47,553 nt of DNA from a virus (taxonomy: Duplodnaviria > Heunggongvirae > Uroviricota > Caudoviricetes), in IMG/VR virus record IMGVR_UViG_2734482568_000006; one strand, given 5' to 3'. The position numbers and the translations under genes are program-made. Within the stretch, counting starts at the first letter, position 1; every line of letters begins with the position of its first letter. Shown one piece after another: positions 477 through 37,475 of the stretch. The notes beneath the pieces are model-generated. The model was not told the DNA's origin, searched no databases, and saw only the letters and a list, made by a program, of their open reading frames with translations.

Positions 477-1175
477 AATCATGTCCAGATCCGGCAGAAC
501 CAGCCTCATGCGCAGTTCTGGCTGGTTTTTGACGTTGATCGCGAGGGGGCAGCGATTGACTGGAGCGACCGGAACGCTCCCGCGCCGAACATCACCGTAA
601 AAAATCCTGTGAACGGTCATGCTCACCTGCTCTACGCGCTCAATATCGCCGTGAGAACCGCGCCGGACAGCTCGGTTAAGGCGCTGAAATACGCCGCTGC
701 GATTGAACGTTCGCTGTGTGAGAAACTTTGTGCTGATGTGAACTACAGCGGACTGATTTGTAAAAATCCGTTCCACCTGGAATGGCAGGTGATGGAGTGG
801 CGAGAGGAAGCCTATACCCTCGATGAACTGGCTGATTATCTCGATTTGAGCGCCTCAGCGCGCCGTAGCATCGATAAACATTACGGGATGGGGCGAAACT
901 GCCACCTGTTCGAAATGACGCGCAAATGGGCTTACAGGGCGATTCGTCAGGGCTGGCCCGAATTCTCACAGTGGCTTGATGCCGTGATTCAGCGTGTCGA
1001 AATGTACAACTCATCGCTTCCCGTTCCGCTTTCACCGCCTGAATGTCGGGCTATTGGCAAGAGCATTGCGAAATACACGCACAGGAACTTCACGCCGGAA
1101 ACTTTCGCACAGTATGTGGCTGATACGCACACATTAACGTACGTTTTCGTTCCATTGGCCCTCCCCCCCCGATAA
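477..1175 (+). pseudogene. Replication-initiator-like gene fragment (plasmid Replicase / PriCT-1-like C-terminal part), 5-prime disrupted
   Basis: Translation contains FDVDREGAAIDW, NGHAHLLY and GRNCHLFEMTRKWAYRAI motifs typical of plasmid/phage replicase-primase proteins. The frame is closed by a stop at 474-476 and all three frames have stops between 449 and 476; the first canonical start in frame is GTG at 609, downstream of the FDVD motif. Confidence 0.4.
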
Positions 1176-26738: not shown

Positions 26739-27686
26739 TTACAGATAATCCGCGACAACCAGCTCCAGCTTGCCCTTCATCTCGTTAGAGACTGTGGCGT
26801 TACCGTCTGCGAACAGCTCGCGCTCCAGCAGCTGCACCGCCTGTTTTTCCAGCGAGGTGGGGACAACAATATGGGTGGGTTTGATGCCGAGTTTGCGGCC
26901 ACCGTCAGCCTTAAAGTCACGCATGGCTGACCAGCCGTGCCACAGCGCATCCAGCGTCAGCGGTGACTGCATCATGTAGGCCATCTGCCAGAAGCCGTAG
27001 CCCACATTGCGACGGGCGGAAGCACCGAACACAAACTCGTTATCAGTAAACGCACGGCCTTCATCGACTTTTGTCTGGGCAACCAGTTCGGCTTTGCGGC
27101 GATCCTGATAAATCAGCGGTTTTACCGCGCGGGAGCAGTCAAGCAGATACCAGGCCGGGCCGCTGTAATCCGCCTGTGCACCGACAGAGCCGGTTTTTGC
27201 CACAAACATATTGCTGACCATCTGTGCATCACCGGAGCCATCCACTTTGGGGTAAACAGGGTGTTCGGTATCAAAGAAGTTCTGGCCGTCATAGCAGGCC
27301 GCATTCAGACCATCACGCAGTGCAGCAAAGACCAGTTCATCCGGTTGTGCCGCAGCGGCACGACCCATTTCCTGGAATAACGGGGAGTAGATGCCGAGAT
27401 TGTCGTCTTCAAAGTCATCGCGGCTAATGGCAACGGTGCCTTCAAAGGTTTTGTTCACGATGGCGTAGCCATAGGCTTTCATCTTCTCGATGACGCGGGA
27501 GCCGATCCACTCACGGAACTGCGGGAACTGCCCCAGCCAGCCGTAGGTGTTGGATTTCGAGGTGGACGGCACGGTCATCGCAATTTTCTGGTACTGCGAC
27601 GGAGCCATGGACATCCCGGCCTGAAAATCAGAACGGTAGCCCGTCATCAGGGCGGTGATCATCGCCGGTGTAATCGGGGTAGGCAT
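26739..27686 (-). CDS. Major capsid protein (Mu T-like)
   Basis: 315 aa directly downstream of the protease/scaffold gene. Confidence 0.8.
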   Translation of the reverse strand: MPTPITPAMITALMTGYRSDFQAGMSMAPSQYQKIAMTVPSTSKSNTYGWLGQFPQFREWIGSRVIEKMKAYGYAIVNKTFEGTVAISRDDFEDDNLGIYSPLFQEMGRAAAAQPDELVFAALRDGLNAACYDGQNFFDTEHPVYPKVDGSGDAQMVSNMFVAKTGSVGAQADYSGPAWYLLDCSRAVKPLIYQDRRKAELVAQTKVDEGRAFTDNEFVFGASARRNVGYGFWQMAYMMQSPLTLDALWHGWSAMRDFKADGGRKLGIKPTHIVVPTSLEKQAVQLLERELFADGNATVSNEMKGKLELVVADYL

Positions 27687-28819
27687 TATTGCATTTCCTC
27701 TTTCATTTTCAGGAACTCGGCTTCGGTTTTACCCAACAGACGTGCGGCGGCGATATCTTCAGCCGACAGCACAGCGGTGGCGGTCTTTTTATCCGGCACG
27801 GTTACGGTGTCGGTCTGAAGAGTGGTCAGAGCCGCAACCGGCTGGCGGGCGTCAAGCTGTGCAGAAAGTGCCGCGACGCCAATCTGTTGTCCGAGTCCTT
27901 CCATGTATCCGCGTTCGCTTTTGAAAATGCGTCCTTCGGACTCGGCCTTATCCAGCAACTGCTCCAGCGTGGTGCTGCCGTGTTGTGCCGACAGCGCGGC
28001 ATATTCGGTACGCAGGGCGTTATACGTCTCAACGGGCACATATTTCGTCAGATCAATAGTGCCGCCAGTTGGTGTGCCTTTTGCGGTTTCCAGTTCTGCC
28101 GACAGGCTGGCAACCTGCGTTTTCAGGGTGTCGTGCGCATCCGCACGGGTTTTGATCCCGGTAAGGGCAGACAGCGCCGCCGTGCCCAGTTCCGGTGTAA
28201 ATTCGTCACCGTCAGCCACGGTCAGACCGAGCGCCGTCAGCAACTGGCGTAATTGCTCATTCATGGGGGATTGCTCCTGAGAAGGGGAAACGACATAGAG
28301 ATCATCAGCACTGAGTGCCGCGACAGGGTTCATACCCGTAATACCCGGATCATTCGTCAGGGAAGCCATGCGCAACAGGTAGGGTTCCCCGGTGTCAGCG
28401 AAATAATGCATATATGCAGACAGATAGGCATATTCACGGTCATCAATATGTTTTTGTGCCTGTGGTGTCCATTCAGGTTTAATGAAAATCCCCTGACCCT
28501 CACGCCATTCGATGTTTTCCGGCTTAACCCATCCTGCAGCAATAGCCTTGAATCCGTTTTTCTGCGCATTCACGGAGTGATGGTCATAATCAATCAGTAA
28601 CGGCTGATGCAGGGCGGAAAGCCCGGCTTTCATCCGGTTACAGGCGGATTCGTTAATCAGCCAGCCTTCAGTCGGTTTTTCCGGGCGACCGTCACGGGCC
28701 TTTACCCGACCGGCTGGCAGTAACTGACACCATCCGTCGCCGGATGCAGTCAGCGAAGCTGAAAGCACGGCTAAACCGGAGGGGCGATTTGCGTCTTTTG
28801 GGTGATTTTCTGTCTTCAT
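27686..28819 (-). CDS. Head maturation protease / scaffold protein (Mu I-like)
   Basis: 377 aa with coiled-coil-rich C-terminal half; position upstream of the major capsid gene. Confidence 0.75.
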   Translation of the reverse strand: MKTENHPKDANRPSGLAVLSASLTASGDGWCQLLPAGRVKARDGRPEKPTEGWLINESACNRMKAGLSALHQPLLIDYDHHSVNAQKNGFKAIAAGWVKPENIEWREGQGIFIKPEWTPQAQKHIDDREYAYLSAYMHYFADTGEPYLLRMASLTNDPGITGMNPVAALSADDLYVVSPSQEQSPMNEQLRQLLTALGLTVADGDEFTPELGTAALSALTGIKTRADAHDTLKTQVASLSAELETAKGTPTGGTIDLTKYVPVETYNALRTEYAALSAQHGSTTLEQLLDKAESEGRIFKSERGYMEGLGQQIGVAALSAQLDARQPVAALTTLQTDTVTVPDKKTATAVLSAEDIAAARLLGKTEAEFLKMKEEMQ

Positions 28820-28996
28820 ACCGGCAGCATAAGCCGGGTATTTTTGGGGCTGGTTTTGCGGGACTTCAGAAAGTGCTGACAGGGGGGGAATGAGAAAGGC
28901 GCTTCACGCAGATTTTAAAGCCCGTTAAATACAGGTTAGAAAATCACGACACGCGCCTGAAGGGGGTAAGGTAATACGTTTGCATACCTTAAACCA

Positions 28997-29470
28997 TTAC
29001 GGCGTTTCTGTGGCCTTTTTAAAGCGTTTTCTGATTTCGTCCATGATCTCCTGTTCTGCCACCTGATCAAAGCCCATATACGGACGTGCGCCAATGGCCG
29101 CCGGTCCCGGTGGCATACCAGGCAGGCCACCCCACTGATGAATGGCTGCATAAGGTTCATTTGATCCAATCAGCGCCCAGGTATCGCCATAATCCGTGGT
29201 CAGGCGGCGGGCCAGATCGCCGTTCAGCGTCAGGATTTTGCCGGGCGTGTATCCCTTACGGGTACGCCACTCACGGTAAGGATCTGACCAGTCATGCCAG
29301 CGTTCACCATCCGGCTCTTTTTCCTGCTCAAACGCCATTTCTGACGATGACAGAAGACTCGCCGCCACACTGCGGGCCAGGTCTTTTCCGCCGCCCACAA
29401 ACTGAAGCCGGGCAAACACTCGCTGGAGACGCGTAACGTCAACAACGACAGCTGCATCAATGGATGACAT
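28997..29470 (-). CDS. Virion morphogenesis protein (Mu G-like)
   Basis: 157 aa between the F-like and I-like genes. Confidence 0.7.
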   Translation of the reverse strand: MSSIDAAVVVDVTRLQRVFARLQFVGGGKDLARSVAASLLSSSEMAFEQEKEPDGERWHDWSDPYREWRTRKGYTPGKILTLNGDLARRLTTDYGDTWALIGSNEPYAAIHQWGGLPGMPPGPAAIGARPYMGFDQVAEQEIMDEIRKRFKKATETP

Positions 29471-29509
29471 ATTGCCTCCGCATAAAGGATGAATATAAAA
29501 TAAACAGGC

Positions 29510-29589
29510 GGTCAGTGTACGCTTAACTGGTAAAGTCGGTGCCTGCCTCCGGGTGGATCATGTATGCGGGTTCGACCCCCGCCACTGAC
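29510..29589 (+). ncRNA. tRNA-like structured element (T-arm plus 7-bp acceptor-type stem; not a canonical cloverleaf by eye)
   Basis: gtcagtg at 29510-29516 pairs with cactgac at 29582-29588; gcggg-ttcgacc-cccgc at 29565-29581 forms a T-arm-like hairpin with a TTCGA loop. It is antisense to the phage late genes, in the F-G intergenic gap. Confidence 0.3.
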
Positions 29590-29591
29590 CG

Positions 29592-30923
29592 TTAATCAAT
29601 TTGTCCTTCCAGCACCTCAAGCATTCCGCCCCGGATATCCGATTTCAGCTTATCCATATTGATAACCCGGTAAGCATTCACAATCACATCCAGTTTGTCG
29701 GGCTGACGTTTCAGACTGTACGGTGCATTAACGGCAATCTGCACACTGCCATCCTGATTTTCCACGATATACATCAGATTGTTGTGCCGTTTGTCCCACA
29801 GTACCGCTTTTGGCCTTGCCAGCATTGCCGGTAAGCGCCCGAAGTCCTCCGGCGTCAGAGCGATGCCGTCATTCTGATGTTTCACACTGTCCGCATGGAG
29901 CACATTTTTACCGCTCATCGCCAGCAGGCGGGCCGGTGGCGTTCCCGTCCGGCTTTCCACTGCCTGCGCAATGCTTTCAGTCATAAAGCCCAGCGTGCGG
30001 ATATCGTTACCACCTCGCCGGGTCTGCATGATGTTTTTTGCCCAGATGCGGAACGCCAGCTGCCGCTCCGGGCTGTTGTTCATCTCCTGAACCACCATTT
30101 CCCGTAACGCCGGGCTTTTCACCTCGATCAGTTTGCGGATCAGCGCCTGGTCTGTGCCGAACGCTGCCGAGCCGGGGTTATATGACCAGCCCACATCCGG
30201 TGTCATGGTTCTGGCGCCATCTGAATATGTGGTCACCGGCATTTCTCTGACTTCTCCGGTCTGTTTATCCACGCCAGCCTCAACATTGCGGGTGGAGAGA
30301 TGATCCTCACCGGATGAAACGGATAACCCCATTGCATCCAGACGGGCCTGAGACAATGGCCGCACACGGCAGCGGCAGTTCCAGCCATTGGGCGGGTAGT
30401 GTGTTTTCCAGAACGGATCGTCATAGCGGAATACCAGACCGTTAAGGGCGGAATGCGACGGGCGGGTACGGCTGTCCATGACCGCCACATACTGCCAGAA
30501 CGGATGCGTGTCCGTGTTGTTCATCATCTGCGTGTAACGCCCGGCATTGTAAGCCACACGGGTGTTCACGTTGTAAATCAGCGCCAGACGACGGGGACTG
30601 CCCTGCTGCACTTCTTCCGCGTTACCGTCGCTGTCCACCACAATCTGCTTTCCCCACCATCCCAGCTTTTGCAGGCGTGGCGTCAGTGTGCGGATAAATT
30701 CTTTCTGTGAAATCCCCTCATCAATGGCCCGCTGCACTTCGGCCTGTAATGTGGTTACCACATCCAGCCGTGCCGTTTTTGCTGCCGTGAATGAGCGGGC
30801 ATGAACATCCGCGTCTGTTTCGAACCAGTTCCAGCTGATATGCGCCCCTTTGGCGCGGAAGTATGCCACCGTCTCTTTTGAGGGAAGCGTGGCGGCATAA
30901 CCTAAATCAATCCCCTGAGCCAT
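29592..30923 (-). CDS. Head morphogenesis protein (Mu F-like)
   Basis: 443 aa directly downstream of the portal gene. Confidence 0.8.
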   Translation of the reverse strand: MAQGIDLGYAATLPSKETVAYFRAKGAHISWNWFETDADVHARSFTAAKTARLDVVTTLQAEVQRAIDEGISQKEFIRTLTPRLQKLGWWGKQIVVDSDGNAEEVQQGSPRRLALIYNVNTRVAYNAGRYTQMMNNTDTHPFWQYVAVMDSRTRPSHSALNGLVFRYDDPFWKTHYPPNGWNCRCRVRPLSQARLDAMGLSVSSGEDHLSTRNVEAGVDKQTGEVREMPVTTYSDGARTMTPDVGWSYNPGSAAFGTDQALIRKLIEVKSPALREMVVQEMNNSPERQLAFRIWAKNIMQTRRGGNDIRTLGFMTESIAQAVESRTGTPPARLLAMSGKNVLHADSVKHQNDGIALTPEDFGRLPAMLARPKAVLWDKRHNNLMYIVENQDGSVQIAVNAPYSLKRQPDKLDVIVNAYRVINMDKLKSDIRGGMLEVLEGQID

Positions 30924-32496
30924 CCAGCATCCCCTTCATTTCCGCAGCAAACATGGCATCACTGAGCAGCGTCATCAGGCGGGAATCATCCATTTCACGG
31001 TAAAGGGCAGGCAGGTCTGCCAGTGCCTCCGCCAGCCCCCGCGTTCTGATGACATCAATGACCGGCTCCAGCACCGGATCGATGGCCTCCTGTAAGCGGC
31101 GGGCAGGCACCGCGTCCCCCATGTCGTCCAGTTCATCACGCGGCGTGTTTTTCGCTTCCGGCAGTCGGGCTGAAAGCGCCGTCTGTTCTGTCTTTTCCTG
31201 TTTTTCCGGTAGCGTTTCCCTGTCAGGCATGGCCGGTTCATTACTGCTCTGACGGACACGGAATATGGCTTCACCGGGCGTGGGCTGTGGAATACCGGTC
31301 TGATCCCGTACCCAGGGATCAGGAATATCCATCCCCGCACTGAGTTGCATCACCGCACTGGCTATTTTGGTGATATCCCCCGGTTCTTTGGTCTGGAAAC
31401 AGATACGCGGCAGGCGACGGATATCAATGGCGTGGGCGGTGTTCAGGGCATACAGCGGATACACCAGATCGCGGTTCAGGGTTGCAGCCAGCTGGCGTAA
31501 ATCAGAATCCCTGATTTCCCGGCGCACCTCGTTATGCACCTCACCCAGCGAGCGCGCGCCTTTGTCTCCGGCTTCTGTGGTCAGCGTGCCGCCGAGTATT
31601 GCTTTGGAGATGGAACGCTCACCCCACGAAATCATGGTTTCAAACGGATCGGCCTGACCGTTCGCTGCCGCCTGAAACTCCAGCGACATCCCGGCCGGGA
31701 TGATCCCGCCTGTACGTCGCCCGATATCCATCACCGCCCGCATCAGGGCACTTTTCTGCTCCGGTGTTGCCCCGGACGGGTATTTCCCGACCTTCATTGG
31801 CAGGCCGTACACCTCCAGAAATTCCGCCAGATCGCGCACGGAATAGTTTTTGAAAATGAACGGCCAGATAAGCGTTCTGACAAGCCCCGTCGCACCACCG
31901 TAGCCGGTGCGTGAACGCGACTGATGCACTATCCAGCCAAAGGGCTGAAACGCCACCCCGGCATGGCTGCCGTCACGCAGCCGCAGTTCGCTCAAATCAT
32001 CCGGGTTAAGGCAGAAATGCCCGCTGTCACGCCAGCGGATGGCGCGGATGATGTGCATTTTACCGAGCATCCCGTGCTCAATTTCCATGCAGGAATAGCC
32101 CTTCAGGATGGCATCCGTGGCGTCAAACAGCATGGCATCAAACCAGTCTGCGGAATGCAGATATTCGTCGAGCATTTCCGCGTCCTTTTTCTCATTCGCG
32201 CTGGCGTTCGGTGGCGGCTCAATACTCCATGGCACCCCCTGAATGGCAAGACGTCGCTTGCCCAGCTCCGCAAAAAGGTGGGTGTCCTTTTCTTCAATAT
32301 CAGCGGCCAGATCGGACTGGGCAATCAGATCGCCACGTTCAGCCCCGCGAAGGCACTGCGCCGCCCGGTTCGGGGTGATACCCGAAGCCGGATGTTCAAT
32401 ATAACGGCTGGCAATCTGCGGAATATCCAGCGCGGCACTCTGCATCTCCGGGTCAAAGGAGAAAGGTTTTCCGTCAGTATCAATGATGCGTCCCAC
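30907..32496 (-). CDS. Portal protein (Mu gp29/H-like)
   Basis: 529 aa directly downstream of the terminase large subunit gene. Confidence 0.8.
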   Translation of the reverse strand: MGRIIDTDGKPFSFDPEMQSAALDIPQIASRYIEHPASGITPNRAAQCLRGAERGDLIAQSDLAADIEEKDTHLFAELGKRRLAIQGVPWSIEPPPNASANEKKDAEMLDEYLHSADWFDAMLFDATDAILKGYSCMEIEHGMLGKMHIIRAIRWRDSGHFCLNPDDLSELRLRDGSHAGVAFQPFGWIVHQSRSRTGYGGATGLVRTLIWPFIFKNYSVRDLAEFLEVYGLPMKVGKYPSGATPEQKSALMRAVMDIGRRTGGIIPAGMSLEFQAAANGQADPFETMISWGERSISKAILGGTLTTEAGDKGARSLGEVHNEVRREIRDSDLRQLAATLNRDLVYPLYALNTAHAIDIRRLPRICFQTKEPGDITKIASAVMQLSAGMDIPDPWVRDQTGIPQPTPGEAIFRVRQSSNEPAMPDRETLPEKQEKTEQTALSARLPEAKNTPRDELDDMGDAVPARRLQEAIDPVLEPVIDVIRTRGLAEALADLPALYREMDDSRLMTLLSDAMFAAEMKGMLDGSGD

Positions 32497-37052: not shown

Positions 37053-37475
37053 TCAGAAAAGCCGTGGCTGCGTGCGTTCCTGATGCAGGCGACGCTGGTT
37101 GCGGATAACGGAGTAAATCTGCGTCTCTGACATCTGGTAGTGGCGGCGCAGGGTTTCAATTTTTTCGCCCTGGCTCCAGCGGGAAAAAATTTCATTATTG
37201 CGCAGTTCGGTGAAAAGGGATTCACCGACCGGGAGATAATAACCACGCCCGCCCATGTACCCGGCCTGTGCGGCTGCAACCTTACGGGCAAGCATTCCCG
37301 CCTGAGCAGGTTCAATCCCCTGACGGTGCAGTTCAGCACTGATCACATCAACCAGGTCCCGCAGCGTGCCGGGCCAGTTCTTTTTCAGCTCATCATCAGG
37401 AATATCATCCAGACGGTCAATCAGCGCGTGCAGCTGTTCGCTGTCACCAAACATGCTCATCTGTGTTTCAGCCAT
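37053..37475 (-). CDS. Mor/C-family transcriptional activator (C-like by position and length)
   Basis: C-terminal half GGRGYYLPVGESLFTELRNNEIFSRW...YQMSETQIYSVIRNQRR resembles the Mu Mor/C DNA-binding region; 140 aa; preceded by an intrinsic terminator. Confidence 0.7.
   Translation of the reverse strand: MAETQMSMFGDSEQLHALIDRLDDIPDDELKKNWPGTLRDLVDVISAELHRQGIEPAQAGMLARKVAAAQAGYMGGRGYYLPVGESLFTELRNNEIFSRWSQGEKIETLRRHYQMSETQIYSVIRNQRRLHQERTQPRLF

Follow-up and report, generated by a model that had tools for sequence, protein, structure and literature searches.

Our subject is a small element shaped like a transfer RNA (tRNA) that lies between the genes F and G of a Mu-like, Sp18-type prophage in the viral record IMGVR_UViG_2734482568_000006, the whole of which (47,553 nt) we call the window. 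F and G are both on the minus strand and are separated by 121 bp, between the start of G (29470) and the stop of F (29592); the element is read on the plus strand and is thus antisense to both. The original prediction had placed a tRNA-like element here, antisense to the late operon, and had offered it as a degenerate tRNA, a tRNA-like regulatory RNA or a structured processing site in the late transcript. The element itself is borne out by the Rfam tRNA model, by the RefSeq annotation 'tRNA-OTHER' and by covariation, and among the three options it is the tRNA-like RNA that stands, a regulatory role being no more than possible. The locus is made up as follows.

28997-29470, minus strand: gene G, with a Pfam match to Phage_tail_S (virion morphogenesis), the neighbour of the RNA on its promoter side.
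29509-29591, plus strand: the tRNA-shaped RNA, tRNA positions -2 to 74 (G1 is 29511 and C73 is 29590), as placed by Rfam RF00005, the family covariance model (R1) and the NCBI Prokaryotic Genome Annotation Pipeline (PGAP).
29509-29517, plus strand: 5' strand of the terminal helix, cggtcagtg, two extra pairs plus a 7-bp acceptor-like stem, pairing with 29583-29591.
29518-29520, plus strand: U8, A9 and C, invariant, directly 5' of the D arm.
29521-29536, plus strand: D arm, stem GCTT/AAGT and loop AACTGGTA, with A14, G18G19 and A21, from alignment to the Rfam tRNA consensus.
29539-29561, plus strand: capped arm that replaces the anticodon arm, from the minimum free energy (MFE) fold and the arm folds of all variants.
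29539-29541 and 29559-29561, plus strand: closing pairs of the capped arm, GUG and CAU, followed by a 1x2 internal loop.
29543-29547 and 29552-29556, plus strand: inner stem of the capped arm, CUGCC and GGUGG, with a UCCG tetraloop at 29548-29551.
29562-29565, plus strand: variable loop GTAT, 4 nt.
29566-29582, plus strand: T arm, GCGGG-TTCGACC-CCCGC.
29583-29591, plus strand: 3' strand of the terminal helix, cactgaccg, abutted by the F stop codon (tta, 29592-29594).
29592-30923, minus strand: gene F, with Pfam matches to Phage_Mu_F and MuF_C; the F stop codon directly adjoins the RNA gene at the 3' end of the latter.

The 9-bp stem (29509-29517 with 29583-29591) and the T-arm hairpin with its TTCGA loop (29566-29582) are where they had been seen by eye. 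The further statement that no D arm could be folded was mistaken, as there is a canonical D arm, GCTT-AACTGGTA-AAGT, with G18G19 in its loop. The companion statement, that a canonical anticodon arm was missing, was right, and the hairpin CUGCC-UCCG-GGUGG, closed by GUG/CAU, stands in its place. The nucleotides that hold the tertiary structure of a tRNA together (U8, A14, G18G19, A21 and T54-Psi55-C56-R57-A58) are present in the element and invariant across its family.

The scans by which a tRNA would be recognized gave a divided answer. Rfam RF00005 matches 29511-29590 at 31 bits against a gathering threshold of 29 (E = 8e-5 in a 301-nt search), with relaxed filters only; the search of the whole window at the gathering threshold gave no hits, and ARAGORN in its default mode found neither a tRNA nor a transfer-messenger RNA (tmRNA) in it. 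At an 80% threshold (-ps80) ARAGORN reports 'tRNA-???' with a 2-nt anticodon. The F-G gap, read on the plus strand, is aligned with the tRNA model over its full length, 24 nt standing for the 18 model positions that comprise position 26 and the anticodon arm. A cmscan of 29400-29700 against all 4227 Rfam families at E<=10 returned only tRNA and STnc480, and neither C4 nor tmRNA; the STnc480 match, at 29480-29515 with E = 4.8, was rejected as chance. The MFE of the plus strand is -35.7 kcal/mol (z = -2.26), a value reached by 3 of 200 shuffles, so that the fold of the single sequence is only modestly better than chance. We regard the element as confirmed; the decisive evidence is comparative, from 28 distinct homologues.

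What was already known of it is an automated flag. PGAP annotates the identical sequence as 'tRNA-OTHER', with the same coordinates, in many E. coli genomes. There is no RefSeq tRNA feature for a G57A allele or for the copy in Sakai Sp18 (L106, between ECs_4971 and ECs_4972). Otherwise the element is to be classed as a tRNA-like non-coding RNA of viruses and mobile elements, with no other Rfam family matched. Literature searches found no description of this RNA, of its sealed architecture, of its classes or of the satellite arrays described below, and no small RNA reported between ECs4971 and ECs4972; a paper on Sp18 and a small RNA concerns another RNA.

Relatives were collected by pattern scans of viral and metagenome contigs, together with loci reached via the G protein, and gave 25 distinct family sequences, or 28 with the covariance model. 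Two alignments were made, one of 16 distinct sequences with MAFFT and one of 28 distinct sequences aligned to the covariance model. In the first, the cells of the cloverleaf (8+4+3+5 pairs) are 95% paired and 12 of the 20 pairs are altered on both sides; in the second the figures are 96.4% and 14 of 20. None of 500 shuffles of the second alignment reached the observed values, and partners slid out of register were 40-56% paired. An independent run of RNAalifold on the MAFFT alignment recovered the same helices plus the inner arm hairpin. Compensatory changes are present in every helix: within the family, both partners have changed at three of the four D-stem pairs, pairing of the T stem is complete (100%) and two of its pairs covary, and the closing pairs of the capped arm covary as well (columns 34-68, 35-67 and 46-66).

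The same alignment tells the two strands apart. The sequence is read as a plus-strand RNA because G.U cells outnumber A.C cells by 55 to 5, because pairing is lower on the minus strand (87.5% against 96.4%), because the family model scores 92.9 bits on the plus strand of the window and 7.1 bits on the minus strand, and because the D- and T-loop consensus is readable on the plus strand only. If the structure served instead on the minus strand, it would consist of intercistronic hairpins in the late mRNA, acting as a processing site, a stabilizer or a spacer for the translation of F and G. The reverse complement does fold, at -29.9 kcal/mol, 35-40 nt upstream of the G start codon, and Watson-Crick covariation fits both strands equally. 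However, that fold is no better than that of shuffled sequence (z = -0.82, with 44 of 200 shuffles as good), the strand signals just listed favor the plus strand, the copies carried by satellites lie outside such an operon, and Mu and one relative (L064) manage with F and G that overlap or abut. We thus consider a role in the late mRNA to be very unlikely, and the processing site of the original prediction, with its 87.5% pairing and 7 bits against 93, is disfavored.

The element is far better conserved than the coding DNA on either side. Between the window and the loci L008 and L019, the DNA of F and G is 73-76% identical, against 62-63 identical positions out of 64 in the conserved halves of the RNA. 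This bears on the simplest alternative, that of a decaying tRNA pseudogene or a gene-finder over-call with no function at all. The null results of ARAGORN and of the Rfam gathering search would fit it, as would the loss of the PGAP call after one base change, and descent from a tRNA is itself plausible. Its closest decoding relatives are genuine tRNA-Ile(UAU) genes, located in tRNA clusters on large phage contigs, that carry the exact 23-nt T-arm and acceptor string of the family, TATGTGGGTTCGACCCCCACCAC, and three of these score 44-47 bits on the family model:

L013, 3775-3867: tRNA-Ile(UAU) gene.
L016, 1307-1384: tRNA-Ile(UAU) gene.
L028, 789-866: tRNA-Ile(UAU) gene.

Going by this common string, the element probably descends from a phage tRNA, for which the tRNA-Ile(UAU) genes are possible ancestors. 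Decay is another matter. A sequence that is conserved above its coding flanks, has compensatory changes in every helix and is kept down to F proteins of 32-54% identity does not behave like debris, and the arm that replaced the anticodon arm is a conserved, covarying hairpin. We give the pseudogene reading very little credence, and the 'degenerate tRNA' of the original prediction is contradicted by the same observations.

Although the body is that of a tRNA, both of its working ends are closed. At the anticodon end, the arm of every variant opens with closing pairs, 3-5 in number, that covary and keep to the normal 27-43 register, and beyond these come a class-specific internal loop or bulge, an inner stem of free sequence and a cap. 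The length of the arm ranges over 23-35 nt across the variants, and the terminal loop, which is not conserved, is 3-5 nt in classes A and B and 6-18 nt in class C (the classes are defined below). The caps include UUCG on several unrelated stems, UCCG (in the window), GCAA, UAAC, UCAA, UCAG, UAUC, CUA and UAGUC, and the tip is UUCG in both L008 and L019. The element does not have the 5-bp anticodon stem and 7-nt loop with U33 and an anticodon, and the arm folds of all variants gave neither a 7-nt anticodon-type loop nor a conserved triplet in any of them. One satellite copy is called 'tRNA-Tyr' by RefSeq, and the arm in question is a palindromic hairpin, CAGCCU-GUAC-AGGCUG. For classes A and B we considered whether the arm tip could act as an antisense loop or a kissing loop, and dropped the idea because these arms, whose stems are unrelated, end in tetraloops of the UNCG or GNRA type.

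At the other end, the pair -2:74 is formed in all 25 variants, in four types (A-U in 10, C-G in 6, U.G in 6 and U-A in 3), and the pair -1:73 in 18 of 25. RNAalifold also predicts both pairs, and class A adds -3:75 and -4:76. The terminal helix is therefore at least 9 bp long, with position 73, the discriminator, buried in pairing. CCA is not encoded at the 3' end of the element. As encoded, then, there is no 7-bp acceptor with an unpaired discriminator and a 3' CCA. Selection on the extra helix pairs suggests that they belong to the working molecule. With both ends closed, the RNA cannot decode and, in its sealed form, cannot be aminoacylated. An alanine identity was looked for and rejected, G3.U70 being absent and 3:70 being C-G or U-A.

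Upstream of the helix there is a candidate promoter:

29472-29501, plus strand: sigma-70-type promoter-like site from a consensus scan, with -35 TTGCCT (29472-29477), an 18-bp spacer and -10 TAAAAT (29496-29501).

The scan found one such site where 0.5 were expected, which is weak taken alone. Comparison adds to it. Most enteric F-G copies have the TAAAAT hexamer, 8-11 nt upstream of +1 and amid variable spacer sequence; it reads TACAAT in L089, and TAGGAT or TATATT in the distant L007 and L080, which have TTGCAT -35 boxes, and there is no clear -10 hexamer upstream of the element in L074. A start 7-9 nt past the -10 falls at tRNA position -2 or -3 (about 29508-29509), the first paired base of the helix, and we therefore predict a leaderless transcript. 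Downstream, L007 and L080 have a hairpin with a U-rich tail 3' of the RNA. These features are no more than suggestive of a transcription unit belonging to the RNA itself.

The closed helix and the predicted start also bear on whether the RNA could be a genuine substrate of the tRNA machinery, processed by RNase P and a 3' nuclease, given a CCA end and charged, for example by histidyl-tRNA synthetase through G-1:C73, for a non-ribosomal use or as a sink for the synthetase. The body is canonical, the Rfam tRNA score is above gathering, and phage tRNAs without CCA can be matured by E. coli. The -1:73 pair is G:C in 11 of the 25 variants, that of the window among them, with G1-C72 and U2-A71 as in E. 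coli tRNA-His. Yet the covariation of -2:74 in all 25 variants makes sense only if this pair is retained in the working molecule, -1:73 is U:A, A:U, G.U or unpaired in many members so that a histidine identity is not conserved, and with the predicted start there would be no single-stranded leader on which RNase P could act. We judge it improbable that the RNA is processed and charged in this way. The tRNA-His-like identity was set aside for the same reasons, the pair not being conserved as G:C and the adjoining -2:74 pair covarying too.

In phages the element keeps its place. Each copy is antisense to F and located just beyond the 3' end of that gene, and it is in the F-G gap wherever G is present. 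The position is held in L007, L025 and L080, where F has 50-54% and G 43% amino-acid identity, and in the environmental contig L086, where the F-like fragment has 33%. In Mu, F and G overlap and there is no gap and no element; in L064 the two genes abut and the element is absent, and L066-68 are also without it. A search of the window with the family model found no second copy, the runner-up scoring 12 bits. Among 5426 complete E. coli genomes, 227 (about 4%) carry a family member, most of them Shiga-toxin-producing strains, and a scan of species-representative genomes with the T-arm string matched Leminorella grimontii only. We also observed that L086 (Ga0209599_10049188) has divergent tRNA-like copies at 118-199 and 752-835 (minus strand) that flank a short open reading frame like the C-terminal part of F, and that in one of these the arm is capped by UUCG and the terminal helix runs to 11 bp or more. 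These copies suggest that the family may reach beyond the enteric Sp18 group.

Variation within the family falls into three arm classes, which are defined by the 3' side of the D stem and the proximal arm:

Class A: GUC-G-GUGC...AUCAU.
Class B: GCAU-AAA...UCAY-AUGU.
Class C: GCAC-C...GGGAUGU.

Each class occurs both in phages whose G is about 97-100% identical to that of the window and in phages whose G is about 72-74% identical to it. The copy in Sakai Sp18 is of class B, and L010 has a different arm class from the window even though its G DNA is 96% identical. Class membership thus does not track the phylogeny of the genes on either side. The segment that is swapped extends from just past the ribosome-binding site of G into the last dozen or so codons of F. 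The element is present in some relatives and absent from others whose core genes are otherwise contiguous, as is the case for a moron, an accessory gene lodged among core genes of a phage, and it is a moron-like accessory cassette, antisense between F and G. Single-base alleles exist as well: that of O157:H7 (L105 301-421, Wll001) has G57A as its sole change, giving the T-loop UUCAACC, in which the rule of a purine at position 57 is still satisfied.

Copies of the RNA gene are also found outside the F-G junction. Several E. coli genomes and gut metagenome contigs have two or three tandem copies after a Mor-family gene and in sense orientation, and the three-copy arrays consist of one copy each of classes A, B and C. 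The island that carries such an array, and the window gene to be compared with it, are:

L069, 12565-20820 (E. coli STEC17-183, NZ_CP075652.1, about 2238564-2246819): 8.2-kb satellite island, inserted in mdtP, which it splits.
37053-37475 of the window, minus strand: Mor-family activator, the prophage's own.

The STEC17-183 island is bounded by a 24-bp direct repeat, AAAAAGGCATACAAAAAGGCATAC, and its array lies about 150 bp from the right end. It has genes for an integrase, Ash-family and Icd-like proteins, a RepA-type helicase, SSB, PerC and Mor, the set of a P4-like satellite. Its Mor is 44% identical to the Mor of the window, which, among the satellite proteins tested, was the only window protein matched. 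With this gene content the island resembles a P4-type satellite, and the likeness of the Mor proteins suggests that its helper would be a Mu-like phage. A strict promoter scan found no promoter upstream of the satellite array. The arrays indicate that the RNA also works away from F and G, and explanations that are purely in cis are weakened by this.

Three further observations were made on these arrays. Between the satellite mor and the first tRNA-like gene (L069 20188-20255) there is a cluster of short direct repeats of the GTGAAA type, which could be binding sites for a regulator or a replication protein. In JNEC-KY179 (L005 2878-2977 against L003 2774-2977) the first copy is a chimera of the 5' end of copy a and the body of copy b, and this array therefore went from three copies to two by recombination between the repeats. 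The two-copy form was also seen in the metagenome contigs L095 and L098.

An element common to phage and satellite, with classes that are swapped by what must be frequent recombination at this spot, could be a site that acts as DNA, such as an attachment site for the satellite, a recombination hotspot or a packaging signal. For integrative elements, tRNA genes are a frequent target. The attachment repeat of the satellite is, however, a different sequence, the 24-mer AAAAAGGCATACAAAAAGGCATAC, and no element was seen inserted in the tRNA-like sequence. The pair-preserving covariation, which includes G.U pairs, is moreover a signature of RNA. An attachment site in particular was rejected, given that the satellite repeat is unrelated, and a DNA-level site of any kind appears hardly credible to us.

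A more serious alternative is that the RNA is a cis-antisense regulator of the late operon, comparable to the sar RNA of P22, which would hold down F or G by transcriptional interference or by duplex formation and RNase III, with the tRNA shape providing nothing but stability. The geometry agrees with this, as the -35 overlaps the Shine-Dalgarno sequence and start codon of G, the promoter would be convergent with the late operon, the RNA spans the whole intercistronic spacer and would be complementary over its full length to the late mRNA at this junction, and the phage copies are always at the F-G junction. Satellite copies of the three classes could even pair with the junction of the helper. 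On the other hand, antisense pairing has no need of the invariant tertiary nucleotides of a tRNA (U8, A14, G18G19 and the T-loop), and the closed fold with its tetraloop tips offers no open loop from which pairing could be initiated. In addition, the RNA itself does not overlap the ribosome-binding site of G, and the satellite RNAs, which follow mor in the sense direction, have no F-G target in cis. We therefore see this regulator as unlikely.

The other late genes near the locus, all identified by Pfam, are these:

26739-27686, minus strand: T, major head protein gene.
27686-28819, minus strand: I protease gene.
30907-32496, minus strand: portal gene.

When the prophage is compared with Mu, D108 and SfMu, DNA matches are confined to G, at about 70% identity. 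The gap between G and I (28820-28996, 177 bp) contains a 27-nt block, CGTGATTTTCTAACCTGTATTTAACGG, on the late strand, which equals the Mu G-I gap at 23 of 27 positions and at the same offset. The Mu record places its gyrase cut site in that gap, and judging from the likeness the block could belong to a gyrase site or a late promoter.

The reading that we favor is that of an independently transcribed, non-decoding mimic of the tRNA body that may act as a decoy. RNA polymerase would start at the base of the helix to give a leaderless transcript, the 3' end would be trimmed back to the helix to leave a stable L-shaped RNA, and, on the most economical view, a factor that recognizes the shape of a tRNA would then bind the body and elbow of this RNA as a ligand or decoy. 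Candidate targets would be an enzyme that processes or modifies tRNA, a nuclease or toxin of host defense that is directed at tRNA, or a protein of the phage or satellite. A role in conflict between mobile elements and hosts, in which phage tRNAs already have a recognized part (PMC11555353), is suggested by the accessory nature of the element, its allele-like classes and its presence on a satellite. The parts of this reading do not carry equal confidence. We consider it very likely that the locus is a gene, and a maintained one, for a tRNA-shaped RNA of about 83 nt that does not decode. The reading as a whole, decoy role included, seems to us probable but well short of secure, and the specific mechanism of a decoy in conflict is offered tentatively, in the expectation that it may well have to be replaced. 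A wider version of it, about which we are more doubtful still, would see the three interchangeable classes as an RNA-only conflict module that is common to Sp18-type phages, with one class each, and to Mor-bearing P4-like satellites, with all three. The RNAs would then possibly be competitive ligands that can be neither cleaved nor charged, and that block an immune nuclease or toxin, block tRNA processing, or serve as class-specific signals between helper and satellite.

Several observations weigh against the reading that we favor. One is the promoter, which is a consensus match at 9 of 12 positions; the conservation of its -35 is confounded by the ribosome-binding site of G on the other strand, and the AU-rich -10 could serve the leader of G on that strand. 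A terminator scan of 29300-29800 found no terminator. An A58C allele (T-loop UUCGCCC), present at 12 viral-contig loci of the L035 type, breaks a conserved T-loop base and may be either tolerated or inactive. The family has few members, mostly from enterobacteria, and one species-representative genome was matched. No neighboring gene travels with the element among its relatives, and the decoy is something we infer from anatomy. Finally, an alignment that is built on a model favors the structure of that model, although the MAFFT alignment gives the same picture.

Comparison with known systems helps to place the element. It is closest in its body to phage tRNAs (RF00005), with which it has in common the cloverleaf, the G18G19 of the D loop, the UUCRA of the T loop, carriage by a phage and probable descent from a phage tRNA. 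Phage tRNAs help phages to evade defenses that cleave tRNA (PMC11555353). Unlike them, the element has no anticodon loop and no CCA and is sealed by a 9-bp terminal helix, and it is a single copy, antisense in the late operon of a temperate transposable phage. With this anatomy and setting it cannot replace a cleaved host tRNA. The tRNA-like domain of tmRNA (SsrA) also has an acceptor helix, a T arm and D-loop elements, with a long helix for an anticodon arm, but the element, at about 83 nt, lacks an mRNA-like domain, G3.U70 and a free CCA end. SsrA, through its tRNA function, reportedly affects the repression of the Mu prophage, and a link to the element would be speculation.

RNAs of the mascRNA type are cut from longer transcripts by RNase P and RNase Z and then receive CCA. 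The element differs from these in being a predicted leaderless primary transcript with a sealed helix and in its bacterial prophage or satellite carrier. The tRNA elbow is recognized by RNase P, the ribosome, T-boxes and many proteins (PMC4810234), and both the mascRNA-type RNAs and the viral tRNA decoys that mimic the elbow are, like the element, non-decoding RNAs that keep it. The CI RNA of P4 and the C4 RNA of P1/P7 are likewise small structured RNAs of prophages or P4-type elements with a long terminal helix; they are stable and serve in immunity. The maturation of C4-type RNAs involves RNase P. They act, however, through exposed loops that pair with target mRNAs, while the element has the D and T motifs of a tRNA and tetraloop tips. 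An acceptor helix of more than 7 bp is also found in the 8/4 and 9/3 allo-tRNAs and in tRNA-Sec (PMC5389517). In those tRNAs the acceptor/T branch is still 12 or 13 bp long, the discriminator is free and has its CCA, and the anticodon is a real one, whereas the branch of the element is 9+5 = 14 bp, its discriminator is paired and it has no anticodon.

If the reading that we favor is true, these phages would have a tRNA mimic that can be bound and yet can be neither used nor destroyed, which is unlike the phage tRNAs that rescue translation after tRNAs have been cut by host defenses. Its three classes move between phages in the manner of specificity alleles, and the arrays next to a Mor homologue point to a satellite of Mu-like phages that had not been described before. 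The element would thus provide a small and testable system for the uses to which recognition of the tRNA shape may be put in the conflicts of mobile elements.

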